NCBI RefSeq assembly: GCF_030013205.1
Contig: NZ_CP122649.1
Length of the DNA: 64,000 nt
Origin: Escherichia coli
GTDB taxonomy: Bacteria; Pseudomonadota; Gammaproteobacteria; Enterobacterales; Enterobacteriaceae
Reading direction: 5' to 3' (one strand)
Shown: positions 36,001 to 45,000 of the stretch, one piece after another
Numbering within the stretch: position 1 is the first letter of the stretch
How the letters are laid out: the number at the start of each line of letters is the position of its first letter
Made by a program: the position numbers

Positions 36001-39000
36001 AAACGAAAGTTAAGGCAACTTCAACAGGGCTGATTACGGTGGAAGAAAAGTAACTTTTCTCTTGAGAAGAAATAGGAAAAGCAGAAATTAGGACGATTAA
36101 ATGAGGTGAAATGTCAGCAACAGGCGATGATTGTCCATCATCGTAAGGGAGGGTACAGGGTGCCGCTGCCTTACTGGCATCATGTTGATGTCCAGCTCTT
36201 CATACCCGTTTGTACCTTAGCCGGAACTGTTGTTCAGTACAGGTAAAAGTTGTAATAACTCCCCGCTCACTGCCGGGGAGTCATTTTAAATCAGCACGGC
36301 GCCATCAGAATAGATTAGCTTTCAAACCAGGGCGAATCGGCAGAGTTCGCAGATTCTTCACTTTGCTGTGACTCTCCCAGAAATTGCACTTCACGTACTG
36401 GTTTACTTTTCCCCAGGCTCCGCTGGAAATCATCCATCACAAACTCAATATCATCACGGTCCTCAGGCAAGACAGGCGAACTTTTGGACATAGTCTTTCC
36501 TTCAGTTAAAAGCGTTCTGCATACAGAACGCGGACGGAGACGGCAGTGTTGTCAAACTCATTATCGAAGGTATCCATCCACTCGGTCCTGAACCCCTCGC
36601 CCAGCAGGTTATCGATCCCCTGAAGGGACAGAGGCAGGACGGCAGCTAAACGCCCGCCGGGAACCAGATGAGACGCAGCGGCCAGCAGATGCAGCTTAGC
36701 CCGGTTGTCAGCAAAAGGAGGGTTCATCACCACGCAATCAAATTTCTGAATCTGATTCGCCGCCGACCAGGCCAGAAAATCGGCTTCCGTGGTCTCGTAA
36801 CCTTTAGCCCGGGAGACCAGACAATTCAGTGTATCCAGTTCGATGCCGGTTACGTTGACACTTTTCGGGAAACATTGAAGCAAATCCCCGTGCCCAATAT
36901 TGGGCTCCAGCAGCCGTTCCCCCTCCCCGGCCGCAATAATGGATGCGACGTATTCACTGAGTCGCGCCGACGACGGATAAAACTGGTGGGATTTAATATC
37001 AGGCATGGCGCCCATATGTCCGATGAAGCGCATCACTTCGGTCGGGTCATAATCAAACGTCACATGGTAGCTTGTCACTCGGGCACCGAGAAATCGCAGA
37101 ACATCCGCGTTCACCTGCCGCGTTTTATCAGCGTTCTCACCGGCATAGCCGAGCGATGTCCAGCTGGACCATTCCTTTTCATTCTGGGTAAAATCCAGCT
37201 CTGCAAGCTGCATCCGTGAATGAAAATCGATGCAGCGTTTCAGTGCCGGGAACTCCTGCAACGTCGCTTTGGTATGGGCCACGCGTTCAGCAGGCAGAGC
37301 CAGAGGGACGATGGCAGCAAGAATGTTGTTAAGCCGTTCGGCGATATCAGGATGCACATCAATGTGCATCGATCCGTTTTTGTAGACCCGAAAACGAATA
37401 CTGTTGCCATCCAGGCTGATCCAGTTTCTGAATCCAACATGACCAACCATATTCTCAACCATTTTTTTCGTGTCATAGACCGGTTTAACTGTTTCGCCCC
37501 GGAAATAAGAACAGATCACCCGCAACTCCGAAAGTGGCATGAGGCCGGATTCTTTAAACTCAACCTTCAGTTTTACCCATTTGTCTTTCACGCCTTCACA
37601 TACGCCGGAGGTGATCATGCGAGTAGAGAAGCCAAATGCTTTATTGGTTTTGTGTTGACGGCTTAATGACTGAAAGACGGCATAGACACGATCTTTAATG
37701 AACTGATGCCGGTCATTGAGCAACGCGACAACCGTGGTAACAACAGCATCGAGTGTAAAATCAGGGATCTCCTGAGGAGGAAGGTGGTAACGGTCAGCAG
37801 TAAACTGCTTATCCCATTCTTTCTTCTTTTCGTCAGACATCACAGACAGTACATCGGTCAGGGCCATGACCCTCTTCCAGTATTCTGAACGCAGCGCGTT
37901 TTCTGCGTAGCTGGCATCCGCTTCTGAAATGAGATGATTGTATCCGGAGAGGTATGAATAGAGCTTCTGATTCCCGCATTTCAGGAACTGAGCGGACATG
38001 GACCTCAGTAAGCTAAGCTCATCGTTATATGATTCGACCTGCCTGTTAATGACATCGAGCTCTTCCCGCATTTCGGGCAGGAAGTTATCGTCGTTAATAA
38101 GGAGGCCAGTATGAGGCATATAAGCAACCAGAGAACTCCCAGGGGCACCCATTGGCAGGGAATCAGATTCAACAGCAGACATAGCACCAGTCCTTTTTGA
38201 AGGGTTTATCTGATACCAGGATAACAACCTTGAACAAAAAGCTAATAGGTTGGCTGACATGAAAATGGAGAAATTAACACTGCGGAAAGTCAGAAAGACA
38301 GATGTGGTTTTAATCAGAAGAAACGGGCCGGAGACAGGACAAAAAAACCCCTACATAGTAGGGGCAACGGGGGGAGAGCCTGGGTGGCTCGCTCTAAAAT
38401 ATCGTACTTCTTATTGTAGTCTTCTCACACTCTGAAATAATTCATTTAAGCCTGTGCTGGGGGTGTTTCGGATTGCGGTTCTCCGCCATTTTTATCGTTT
38501 TTCTTGGTTTTGTAAGTCACTTTTTCCCCTTTCAATCGGGCTTGCCGATTTTCGGCCCGGCGAAGCTGCTTGTTTTCTGATTCCGTAATCTCACTTTGCA
38601 GGTTCTTGAGCATCTCCAGCATGCTCCGGTTCAGCGTAAAGGTAATTTCTTCATCTTCGCTGGAGTCGGTCACCTCCGGCAACTCGATATCACCGAGTTT
38701 CTGCAATAGACTCGTCGTAATGAGTTTGACCCCTTCGACGGCTTTTGTAGCGAGAACTGGTGGAACACGTGCGGGTTTAAAATCGGAAGGGACAACACGG
38801 ATCTGCCCGCGTGGCGTTTTCTTAATCTGGATACCGCTTGAATCAGCCTTTTCAAGGTCTGCGATCATCTTTTCGATCCGCGCAACAGCTTCCGTTTCAC
38901 CGAACTCATCGATAAGGGACAGGACTGCTACATAGGAAATGGCATCGGCATGGATCAGTTTTTTGAGATAGACACAGCAGCCGGTTAAACGAATAAGAGC

Positions 39001-42000: not shown

Positions 42001-45000
42001 CAATAAAACGTGATCCTGAACATTACCAGTCAACGCGAATCCATCATTCTGCTTTTTGCCTGTAAAAGTAAAAAAATAGCTATGAGAACCTTTTGAAAAC
42101 GCAGCTCGCACTTCTGTAAAAATAATATCAAAACTAACTACATCACCAATGTTGAAAGAATGTTCAATTGGAAAACCGGCGTTTTCTGAAAAAGCTTCAG
42201 AAACAGGCTGGTATGTCGAGTAGAAAGACTCCAACTGACGGACTGTTAAAAAGAGATTGTTGTTTAACTGCTGTGCAATGCTTGCTGCAAACTTAGAATT
42301 GTCAGCTTGCAGCAATGCTAACTGCTCGCTGTGCCTACGTTTCCAGGCTTCAAGATCGGGATTGCAGCGAAGTTCCGGGATAGTTTCAAGGAATTCAATG
42401 CACTCTTTCAGTACCAGCTTTTCCTCTGTGGCTGGAGACGTTTTGGAGCCATTGCATGTCACACAGACGGCGTTCGCAATCTTTCCAGTCCCTCCGCATT
42501 CAAAGCACTCACGGGTGATAACGGCGTAATAGTGTCCATCTTTACCGTAGATAGGCTTTACGGATGATGGCAGTAAATAACCATCCTGAGTAAAAAAAAG
42601 AGAATGTTTCATTTTTTAAGGTTCTCCAGTCGAGCCTCCACGAGCTGTAAAGCGTCAGTTACCTTCTGTACGTATTGATCGTGCCCTTCTTCAAAATGAT
42701 CAAAACGCTTTCCAGCCTTGATCTCTTCAATGTTGCGATCGAGTGTGCCTTTTGTAATAAGTAGATCGTTATAAGTATTAATTACAGTAAACTGTGCAAT
42801 CTTGTCCATAAACGGTCCTTAGCATTCTACTCACTTGTTAACAGGTCACGAATTTCATGCAGTTCTGTAACCTTAGATTTTGGAATGATGATAGCAGTAT
42901 TTTCATCATTTAGAAGGCTTAATAAAAGCTGGAGTTTTGCTTCATCTAGAGTGATCTTTACACTTTCCGTTGTCTTTGTGATGGAAGTGCTGCTGATGTT
43001 CGTAAATAAATTGGAATGTTGTCCGTCGAAAATTAATTCGGTGAGTTTATTACTGTCGTTTAGTGCTGGCCGTACAGTATCAATCAGCCCGATAAATTCA
43101 GTTTTTAAGCGTTCAGTTTTTTTATGAGAAAGCCGTTTAATACCCAATGAACTGCGAGTGATGGATTTTGTTTTAACTTCCTTAGGAATAACATGAACAG
43201 GGAGTGTTTCCGGGTTATCTAGTTTCTCATCGTTTGATGATGTTTGAACGCTTGATGTCTTAGATAAAACAGGTTCTGGTTCAGTTGATGGTACTAAAAG
43301 AGAACACGATTCCAAATGTGCAAGGACTTTTGCATGGTCATTGGAATACTTCAACATGATCTCAATCGCGAGTGTTTTTTTAATCAGGTTTAGACTGATT
43401 AAACGTTGTAGTTCTAAAGGCATATCAAGGATTTTAAGCTGGTTACGAATAGCAGTGCTAGACCGTTGATAGCGCATAGCAAGGGATTCAACGGTAGAGC
43501 CAAGCTTCAGCGCCTCTGCCAGTGCATAAGCTAAGGCTACGGGATTAAGACCGTTATTCCTATTCCCATCAAGGTTCTCCAGGTATTCTTCACTTTTATT
43601 CTTATAGTTCATAACAACTACTGAAATGAGCTGAATATCAGCTCCTTCCGCAAGAGCAAGAGATAGTGCTCTGTAACGGCAATGCCCCTGCCTTACAACG
43701 TAATTGGAGTCTTTCTTAACAACCTTAATTAAATCGACTCGTCTGCCCTCTTTATAGGCTTGTTTAATAGAAACAATGGTCGATTTTACTGGTTCCTGTT
43801 CATAACAAAGTTCACCAATTACCGCTTCACGTGGATTGAATCCAGATTCGATAAAAAGTGCTTTAGGACTGATCTCAATAATCTGATAGTCGCAGTGATT
43901 CATATAACCTCCTTTTTATTACATGATACATTAATTGACTCAGTTTCAAATAACCCAAAAGCAAAAAACAATTAATTCGGTGCTTGACTGTAATTTTAGT
44001 TATGAAGGAATTAGGCCATTTTAATTTGAAATTTTTAAATCTGAATGGTTTGAAATTAATATATCTTAAAAGCTTCAGATTGATTGATACTTCTTCCGGC
44101 TGCATTCCCTACTTGGCTAGAGTCCGAACCTGAACTTTTTAGGTCAGAGTTGGTTAACAGACGGAATTTATCCACGTTTTCCACAAGTTAGATCAATTCT
44201 TTAGATCAAGAGAGATCAAGAGAGTACAAAAAAGATCACAGGTTCCGTAAATGACTGATTTTATTATGGAATAAGCATGATCAGGCATTCAGGTGCATGT
44301 AAAAAGCATTTGATTGAATAAGAAAAGCATTTACTTGAATTGAAAAGGCATTTAGTTTAATGCGAGAAAAGCATTTGCACGAATAATCTATTCACATCTA
44401 AATGTATCAAGGGATAAACCATGGTGGGTAAATTTAAATGAGTGATAACAATGAGGTAACACATCCTTTTGATGTGACCAACACGGAGACAGGGAAGACT
44501 TATCAACTGAGTCCAAACTCTTCGAAATCGGTCCAACCCATTGCTTTACTGCGCTTAAGTGTTTTTACCCCGGTGGGAACTAAAGAGAAGCGATACAGAA
44601 ATTTTGAGGTTGACGCTTCTGATGAGTTGTCGAGCATGGAGCTGGCCCGTTCAGAAGGATACGATGACATTCGGATCACTGGTCTTAAGCTTTCGATGTC
44701 AACCGATTTTAAGTGTTGGCTCGGTTGCATAATGGCGTTCAGCAAATATGGTTTCGCTTCCGATAAAATCACATTGTCATTCAATGAGTTTGCAAAAATG
44801 TGTGGTATCAGTTCTACAAACATAAACAAGCGAACTCGCTCACGATTTCAGGAGGCGCTAGCAAACCTAGCTTCCGTTGTGATTTCTTTCCGTGATTCAA
44901 AAACTGAACGTTTTACTGTCACGCACCTTGTGCAGAAAGCAGTGATTGATCCTAAGAAGGACACCGTAGAGTTGGTGGGCGATCCCTCAATGTGGGAGCT

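Follow-up and report, generated by a model that had tools for sequence, protein, structure and literature searches.

A conserved block of ParA-less ParB-like proteins and orphan adenine methylases adjoining the RepHI1A replicon of IncHI1 plasmids: a candidate modification and establishment module

The 64,000-nucleotide stretch of Escherichia coli contig NZ_CP122649.1 analyzed here (the window) belongs to an IncHI1 (R27-type) resistance plasmid, and its proteins are identical to those of R27, under the same RefSeq protein accessions. Between the genes for its two initiators, RepHI1B (30780-31661) and RepHI1A (44438-45313), where an earlier reading made from the sequence alone (the sequence-only reading) had correctly placed it and delimited all eight of its open reading frames (ORFs), lies a cluster that is a conserved backbone module of the H-group conjugative plasmids (MOBH; MPF-F, mating-pair formation type F), here in its IncHI1 form. 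Its eight genes constitute one conserved block tied to the replicon, a point that the sequence-only reading had missed, and made of two halves: an operon of ParB-like paralog 3, a 66-residue protein and a zinc-finger protein next to the RepHI1A origin, followed by the gene for a 273-residue winged-helix protein; and then a divergent pair of dam (on the opposite strand) and ParB-like paralog 2, followed by a DUF4942 methylase and an acidic 58-residue protein. We tentatively favor, at somewhat short of even, the reading that this is a regulated DNA-modification and establishment module, whose ParB-like components would be ParA-less, site-specific DNA binders akin to KorB and HerB rather than segregation proteins. 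The genes concerned, together with a third ParB-like gene at the start of the window, are:

42827-43903, minus strand: ParB-like paralog 3, 358 residues, first gene of the paralog 3/66-residue/zinc-finger operon.
42609-42809, minus strand: ORF for a 66-residue protein with the motif GKRFDHFEEGHD, overlapping the zinc-finger gene by 4 bp.
41905-42612, minus strand: 235-residue protein with an N-terminal DnaJ-type zinc finger (Pfam).
40801-41622, minus strand: 273-residue tandem winged-helix protein with a Rep_3-like fold (AlphaFold2 model and Foldseek).
39962-40786, plus strand: Dam-family N6-adenine methylase, 274 residues, TTG start, DPPY motif (TIGR00571).
38446-39603, minus strand: ParB-like paralog 2, 385 residues (phrog_1033, Pfam HTH_ParB, AlphaFold2 model, family profile).
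38365-38347, minus strand: GC-rich, terminator-like hairpin with a T run behind it, separating paralog 2 from the DUF4942 methylase.
36506-38260, minus strand: 584-residue protein combining DUF4942 with a gamma-class-like N6-adenine methylase (Pfam, PHROG, PADLOC, alignment with M.TaqI).
36315-36491, minus strand: ORF for an acidic 58-residue protein (isoelectric point 4.2), 14 bp downstream of the DUF4942 methylase gene.
1-867, minus strand: ParB-like paralog 1, 401 residues at full length, its C-terminal end lying past the window start.

The 8.2-kb interval is 100% identical in many IncHI1 plasmids (pMAK1, pO111_1 and others), and the eight genes are annotated identically in R27 (where they occupy 40.9-48.5 kb), pMAK1 and other members of the group. 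The order from the rep gene to the terminal small ORF recurs in IncHI2, a Buttiauxella plasmid and a metagenomic contig (L012), each of which has a small gene in the position of the 58-residue one; the rep gene upstream of paralog 3 is of the RepHI1A type in L012 and a Rep_3 gene in Buttiauxella. Paralog 2 is 62% identical in Buttiauxella, and in L012 the identities fall to 26% for paralog 2, 38% for paralog 3, 40% for Dam and 33% for the DUF4942 protein, with conservation of the zinc-finger protein limited to its N-terminal domain. The retention of the order at such divergence points to a functional unit, or at least to a very old backbone unit. As to the fine structure, the paralog 3/66-residue/zinc-finger operon stands as the sequence-only reading described it, but of the 4-bp overlaps ascribed to it only that between the 66-residue and zinc-finger genes is present, paralog 3 being separated from the 66-residue gene by 17 bp. 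Similarly, paralog 2 is indeed divergent from dam and upstream of the second methylase, but because of the terminator-like hairpin between them, paralog 2 and the DUF4942 methylase are probably transcribed separately. Among the smaller products, the zinc-finger protein carries a DnaJ-type CxxCxGxG finger (Pfam E 0.001); the 58-residue protein has no family match among the NCBIfam, PHROG and PADLOC models, and the 66-residue protein likewise has none. An Rfam scan matched only sok, outside the cluster.

The three ParB-like paralogs share 33-35% identity across their first ~200 residues, and a hidden Markov model of the family (138 members) picks exactly these three ORFs in the window and does not match the canonical ParB (60670-61677), to which BLAST also finds no similarity. 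Paralogs 2 and 3 match phrog_1033 (E 4e-30 and 9e-24, respectively), the Pfam helix-turn-helix (HTH) family HTH_ParB and, weakly, TIGR00180; the Pfam ParB N-terminal domain, which the sequence-only reading had invoked as a nuclease domain, is undetected in either, and that label is unsupported. The AlphaFold2 model of paralog 2 (predicted local distance difference test score, pLDDT, 89) displays a ParB-fold N-terminal domain, an HTH and then long C-terminal helices, the first two being the architecture of the ParB/Noc/KorB superfamily. Foldseek aligns it with CTP-ParB, Noc and KorB structures (E ~1e-6, probability 1.0), and globally the model superposes best on the KorB-KorA complex (template modeling score, TM, 0.58). 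The family is defined by a signature P..EGFNxR, followed by (V/I)R(D/Q)GHCRxRA and then by a box III region without the canonical Glu-Asn. In the plasmid proteins box II reads GHCR(L/Y)(K/R)A and box III DGN(R/S), as against the canonical GERRxRA and ENxQR; GHCRLKA aligns opposite GERRYRA of Spo0J, and the Glu-Asn pair of box III is not conserved across the 138 members. These proteins may bind nucleotide.

No ParA gene adjoins any of the three paralogs, whose neighbors are methylases, small ORFs and the zinc-finger gene, and a ParA neighbor is also absent for the family members of IncHI2, Buttiauxella, L012 and IncC. The claim that the paralogs stand apart from the canonical parAB pair (59420-61677) and have no ParA is thus borne out. 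They represent a large ParA-less branch of the ParB/Noc/KorB fold with non-canonical nucleotide motifs. A profile search of 1.84 billion representative proteins recovered 657 family clusters at E ≤ 1e-10, and tblastn located the family in 2,473 PLSDB plasmids, mainly conjugative MOBH types, with three copies per record in IncHI1 and IncHI2, two in pNDM-MAR-type IncHI1B and one in IncC. Far from being unusual, as had been proposed, three paralogs on one plasmid are the standard state of ~1,380 IncHI1/IncHI2 records. Virulent 9NA/Sasha-like siphoviruses, for which partition would serve no purpose, also encode relatives (~30% identity), and this argues against a partition role. Our literature search found no functional study of the IncHI ParB-like genes or of their family; hence, given the spread of the family over these plasmids and virulent phages, work on the IncHI versions would inform the wider set of mobile elements. 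In two metagenome contigs (L013/L014) that represent an unrelated conjugative element, a family member (L013 6001-7038) lies directly upstream of a parA/korB/HTH_43 set, indicating that the family is able to coexist with a bona fide KorB.

Comparison with better-understood ParB-related proteins sharpens this picture. With the partition ParBs of type Ia ParABS systems, the IncHI paralogs have in common the N-terminal and HTH folds and the weak TIGR00180 matches, but they differ in lacking an adjoining ParA and a Pfam ParB N-terminal match and in their altered nucleotide-binding motifs. The nearest structural parallel is KorB, the ParB-family global repressor and CTP clamp of the IncP plasmid RK2, which has the same N-terminal and HTH fold and which, in complex with KorA, is what the paralog 2 model matches best globally. 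The parallel extends to a dispersed palindromic site, found partly in promoters and partly within genes, although binding at such sites is a prediction for the IncHI plasmid. KorB differs, however, in having a ParA partner (IncC) and a KorB C-terminal domain, neither of which the IncHI paralogs possess (no Pfam KorB domain); box II is GHCRxRA in the latter and GERRxRA in KorB, and the structural alignment yields 14-15% identity. HerB (YfjB) of the F plasmid, a leading-region protein that reprograms the host, is likewise a ParA-less ParB-like protein on a conjugative plasmid (PMC13370423), and the neighborhood of paralog 1 is comparable to that of herB in its hok and DUF905 genes and in pointing toward the transfer origin (oriT). 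The relationship is distant (17% identity at an hhalign probability of 95%, confined to domains D1-D2): HerB has 652 residues as against 358-401 for the IncHI proteins, which are devoid of D3 and D4, and paralogs 2 and 3 are 60 kb from oriT. Membership in the HerB/YfjB family, which requires each of D1-D4 at ≥80% coverage (PMC13370423), was rejected, as only D1-D2 align.

The dispersed palindrome that the sequence-only reading had noted is real. The 15-bp GAAAAGTWACTTTTC has 23 matches in the window at ≤2 mismatches, both strands counted, versus 0.19 expected. Its positions in the window are 957, 1075, 7601, 13839, 19004, 21938, 36045, 41541, 46373, 49426, 51735 and 62624. In R27 the count at ≤2 mismatches is 43, including 13 perfect copies, with the core AAAGTNACTTT occurring 46 times, and the 258-kb pNDM-MAR has 86 core sites versus 0.3 expected. 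None of the latter falls in its 125-165 kb resistance region, the palindrome being confined to the backbone. The core is common to every H-type relative examined, and none of the papers searched contains the palindrome sequence. The sites most pertinent to the ParB-like genes and their surroundings, none with an assigned strand, are:

39685-39699: variant palindrome AAAAAGGTACTTTTT (position weight matrix scan), in the dam/paralog 2 divergent promoter region.
41541-41555: perfect palindrome GAAAAGTAACTTTTC, within codons 23-27 (RKVTF) of the 273-residue protein gene.
36045-36059: perfect palindrome, 128 bp upstream of the immunoglobulin-like (Ig-like) gene at 33413-35917 (minus strand).
957-971 and 1075-1089: two near-palindromes, upstream of paralog 1.

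Many palindromes are at promoter distance from start codons and some are inside genes. Ig-like genes often have one upstream (as in each H-type relative examined, L010, L011 and L017 among them), as do the paralog 1 and 2 genes and trhA, and sites lie on either side of oriT; some intergenic regions contain arrays of four to six sites. The 15-mer AAAAAGGTACTTTTT is identical in IncHI2, and a near-copy, AAAAAGTACCTTTTG, is found in the same dam/paralog 2 intergenic region of Buttiauxella, and upstream of the paralog 1 orthologs there are six sites in pNDM-MAR and two each in IncHI1 and IncHI2. This conservation of the variant at dam/paralog 2 and of two to six sites upstream of paralog 1 orthologs suggests an operator-like role. 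Around the family members of IncC and 9NA, a search for recurrent palindromes returned nothing informative.

The pNDM-MAR plasmid also narrows down the possible readers of the palindrome. Of the nine module proteins it retains only those of the paralog 1 and paralog 2 types, plus a DUF4942-only fragment, alongside its 86 core sites. Within the sensitivity of BLAST, this sets aside paralog 3, the 273-residue protein, the zinc-finger protein and the methylases as general binders and leaves the paralog 1- and 2-type proteins, which we infer to be the best candidate readers among the nine proteins examined. The proposal that the ParB-like paralogs are the binders of the palindrome therefore survives for these two types, but not for paralog 3, which is absent from pNDM-MAR and was rejected as a general binder. 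The palindrome was also considered as a Rep iteron or Rep-dimer operator and rejected as such; the RepHI1A iteron AAAGCATTTGNATGAATGG differs from it, palindrome-like variants being merely interleaved with the iterons.

The 273-residue protein, whose Rep-like fold the sequence-only reading had missed, deserves separate mention. Its AlphaFold2 model (pLDDT 81) comprises two winged-helix domains, with the RepE dimer-operator complex as the top Foldseek match (E 9e-4, probability 1.0) and a fold similar to those of RepE, RepA and RctB. It has no Pfam or NCBIfam match, BLAST relates it to neither RepHI1A nor RepHI1B, and no array of iterons belonging to the gene was found; we describe it as Rep-like in fold only. 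Because of the perfect site in the 5' end of its gene, where the RKVTF peptide and its palindrome at 41541 are both conserved across orthologs, it was once favored as the palindrome binder. This candidate was rejected: pNDM-MAR, with its 86 core sites, has no homolog detectable within the sensitivity of BLAST and hhalign, and profile comparison finds no resemblance to it in the genes that occupy the corresponding place there.

Taking these strands together, we propose that the ParB-like proteins act as site-specific DNA-binding regulators of the KorB/HerB kind. Paralog 2 would control the promoter region that it shares with dam via the conserved variant palindrome, and paralog 1- and 2-type proteins would read the palindrome at their own promoters, at Ig-like surface protein genes and at the promoters of tra and oriT. 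The two methylases would keep the plasmid DNA modified in a new host, with Dam acting at GATC sites, which are densest upstream of both rep genes. The net role would be a regulated establishment combining replication control with restriction evasion; were the ParB-like proteins to act as repressors, plasmid entry would bring a burst of expression before the repressor builds up. The regulatory rather than partition reading is favored because of the missing adjacent ParA, the lack of similarity to the resident ParB and the relatives in virulent phages. A broader version, which we regard as possible but doubtful, makes the paralog 1- and 2-type proteins the trans-acting factors of a palindrome network across the H plasmids (IncHI1, IncHI2, the pNDM-MAR type and the Photorhabdus and Buttiauxella relatives), exerting, as a non-canonical ParB branch with no ParA, a KorB-like silencing of conjugation genes, of the Ig-like surface proteins that mating needs and of the plasmid's own methylases, and perhaps of origins, that would be relieved transiently at entry.

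Several observations weigh against this set of proposals. Neither paralog 3 nor the DUF4942 methylase was found to have a palindrome upstream. Plasmids with one and the same palindrome core differ in the predicted recognition helix of paralog 2, which weakens the case for this paralog; that of paralog 1 is better conserved. The comparison of binders covered the nine module proteins, and the backbone regulators HtdA, TrhR/TrhY, H-NS and Hha stand outside it. Moreover, Photorhabdus and pNDM-MAR-type plasmids carry paralog-type genes next to Ig-like genes and have none of the methylases, indicating that the coupling of ParB-like protein and methylase is not obligatory. In these plasmids a paralog 2-type gene is found directly upstream of an Ig-like gene.

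The fold and the abundance of sites could also be accommodated by additional centromere-binding or plasmid-organizing ParBs, which would load at the palindromes, much as ParB loads at parS and Noc at its own sites, and compact the 180-kb plasmid or determine its location, either together with the resident ParA or independently of it. In keeping with this, the fold is that of ParB/Noc, the palindromes number in the dozens and are restricted to the backbone (46 in R27, 86 in pNDM-MAR), and some intergenic regions have arrays of four to six. Near the paralogs themselves there is a single variant palindrome upstream of paralog 2, none upstream of paralog 3, and arrays upstream of the paralog 1 orthologs. 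With no adjacent ParA, two dedicated partition systems already present in R27, relatives in virulent phages, altered box II and box III residues and many sites at promoter distance from starts, we consider this account decidedly improbable.

Turning to the methylases, the Dam-family protein scores 230.5 bits with TIGR00571 (cutoff 114.85), has the DPPY motif and falls below the E. coli Dam equivalog model (171 bits versus a cutoff of 441). It is ~33% identical to E. coli Dam and retains the GYNGLCRYNL DNA-contact loop, from which we infer GATC specificity. The 584-residue protein matches Pfam DUF4942 (1e-22), phrog_6263 'DNA methyltransferase' (8e-115) and PADLOC MTase_II (7e-9), and its C-terminal part contains EPNIGHG (EPxxGxG) followed by NPPF. 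Its best solved-structure match, M.TaqI, is weak (E 0.007), with an alignment that spans motifs I and IV. These features suggest that it is probably a gamma-class N6-adenine DNA methylase; nothing functional on DUF4942 was found in the literature.

The recurrent pairing of ParB-like genes with orphan methylases, as asserted by the sequence-only reading, is upheld: it is seen twice in this cluster, in IncC (where the family gene is followed by a 65-residue ORF and a DNA methylase lies four genes downstream), in phage 9NA and in the very distant homologous module. In the virulent Salmonella phage 9NA, gp81 (phrog_1033) belongs to the same family, with ~30% identity over the first 210 residues, and is encoded three genes after a DNA methylase; such phage proteins are shorter (254 residues) and the IncHI palindrome is absent from the phage region. 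Fomenkov reportedly described in 2020 ParB-domain/methylase fusion enzymes from plasmid leading regions, of the M.EcoGIX type. These resemble the IncHI arrangement in that a conjugative plasmid carries a ParB-like module tied to an orphan adenine methylase, but they are single polypeptides encoded next to oriT, whereas the IncHI plasmids have separate genes away from oriT for an HTH-bearing ParB-like protein and for Dam and DUF4942 methylases. This raises the alternative that the ParB-like proteins are clamps that recruit the neighboring methylases onto the plasmid DNA in cis, as split M.EcoGIX-like enzymes. The two ParB-like/methylase pairs do stay together across very distant plasmids, and the pairings in IncC and 9NA and the fusions on plasmids speak for it too. 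Yet paralog-type genes occur without these methylases in pNDM-MAR and Photorhabdus, SSU5 has a DUF4942 methylase without a ParB-like neighbor, and the terminator-like hairpin separates paralog 2 from its methylase; we judge such targeting to be quite improbable.

The position of the block relative to oriT bears on how it might act during transfer. The oriT of R27 is found at ~108.2-108.9 kb, with mobI on one side and the trhR-side operon on the other; this places the cluster 60-68 kb away in one direction and ~113 kb in the other. At ≥60 kb from oriT it is not a classical leading region, and the notion that it belongs to the part of the plasmid that enters the recipient first is not sustained. 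All cluster genes except dam point toward oriT. Paralog 1 is located ~15 kb from oriT on the relaxase side, within a long run of genes pointing toward oriT (hok/sok, DUF905, DUF957), a layout shared by pNDM-MAR; these gene families also occupy the F leading region around HerB. The hok/sok locus itself (1875-2036, minus strand; Rfam sok, 89 bits) is ~1 kb from paralog 1, a proximity like that of hok and HerB in the F leading region.

A rival, the one put forward by the sequence-only reading, is an anti-restriction and establishment module: early expression in the recipient would allow the methylases, perhaps with the ParB-like and 58-residue proteins, to shield the incoming DNA. Orphan methylases are a prominent function of leading regions, their pairing with ParB-like genes recurs in plasmids and phages, a small acidic protein adjoins one of the methylases, and both the cluster genes other than dam and the small-gene block with hok/sok, DUF905 and DUF957 face oriT. 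Against it stand the distance of the cluster from oriT and a recent published survey, in which MOB-H plasmids had no leading-region anti-defense peak and no anti-defense system was detected in the plasmid taxonomic unit PTU-HI1A. PADLOC has no defense or anti-defense model matching the ParB-like, zinc-finger, 273-residue or small proteins. Dam, furthermore, duplicates a host function in Enterobacterales, and the plasmid enzyme would add little restriction protection in transfers between Dam-positive enterobacteria. The transfer direction of H plasmids was not found in the literature, and the IncA/C oriT paper gives none. We judge anti-restriction unlikely; it overlaps with our preferred reading of a regulated modification and establishment module, as does the replicon-control alternative considered below.

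A link to replication is apparent from the surroundings of the rep genes. Within the window, GATC sites are packed most densely at two places, one just upstream of repHI1B and the other just upstream of repHI1A:

30559-30640: five GATC sites in 80 bp from 30559, upstream of repHI1B.
44191-44237, no strand: four GATC sites within 47 bp; they lie between paralog 3 and repHI1A, in the RepHI1A origin region.

The latter is conserved in IncHI2, and the promoter region of paralog 3 is contiguous with it and with the upstream RepHI1A iterons. Both clusters are made of short repeated GATCAA units and resemble Dam/SeqA-sensitive origin elements. The oriR of plasmid P1 offers a precedent for a cluster of Dam sites at a plasmid origin, one which needs methylated DNA. 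A plasmid Dam could thus secure the function or control of the origin in hosts with little or no Dam. Downstream of repHI1A, at 45813-45913 and 46373, the variants GAAAAGTGCCTTTTG are interleaved with the iterons AAAGCATTTGNATGAATGG at 43-bp spacing; because of this interleaving, the palindrome-binding factor may also touch the origin.

The genes might instead make up a replicon-control module, in which Dam, paralog 3, the 273-residue protein and the zinc-finger protein would exert fine control over the origins of RepHI1A and RepHI1B, for example by origin methylation, Rep remodeling or handcuffing. The module adjoins a rep gene in IncHI1, Buttiauxella and L012, and the reading further draws on the contiguity of the paralog 3 promoter with the iterons and GATC cluster, the GATC density upstream of both rep genes, the interleaved palindrome variants, the Rep_3-like fold of the 273-residue protein and the DnaJ-type zinc finger. 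Conversely, the 273-residue protein has neither sequence similarity to RepHI1A or RepHI1B nor iterons of its own, the synteny may merely mirror a conserved backbone, and pNDM-MAR replicates without Dam, the 273-residue protein, the zinc-finger protein or paralog 3. We regard this reading as very improbable.

The matter is of some consequence, as multidrug resistance in typhoid, mcr-1 and NDM-1 travel on plasmids of the IncHI1, IncHI2 and pNDM-MAR types. The recent survey reported no recognizable anti-defense or leading-region signature in these H plasmids and called their establishment strategy unexplained. No functional study of the cluster genes or of the palindrome was found in the literature. 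The set of ParA-less ParB-like binders with two orphan methylases, and a palindrome present at 46-86 sites, are concrete candidates for H-plasmid regulation and establishment.

Other features of the window and its relatives round out this setting. The Tra2 transfer genes begin past RepHI1A, and genes for large Ig-like (DUF4165/Big_3) surface proteins stand on either side of RepHI1B (33413-35917 and 26152-28536, both minus strand). Within the block pointing toward oriT, 13976-16405 (minus strand) encodes an 809-residue protein of the phosphoadenosine phosphosulfate (PAPS) reductase family with weak similarity to the phosphorothioation sulfurtransferase DndC (E 8e-33, under the model cutoff); in the otherwise identical plasmid NZ_CP122645 this gene is present as two ORFs. 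In pMAK1 a single-base insertion relative to the window in the dam/paralog 2 intergenic region (39604-39961) causes the annotated dam coordinates to be one base off. Finally, the Klebsiella IncHI1B plasmid NZ_CP016921 has, at 25105-26484 of the stretch examined (L017), 11 copies of a different palindrome, AACAAC-N3-GTTGTT, at ~200-bp spacing, in DNA without annotated genes that has an Ig-like gene on one side and parA on the other.

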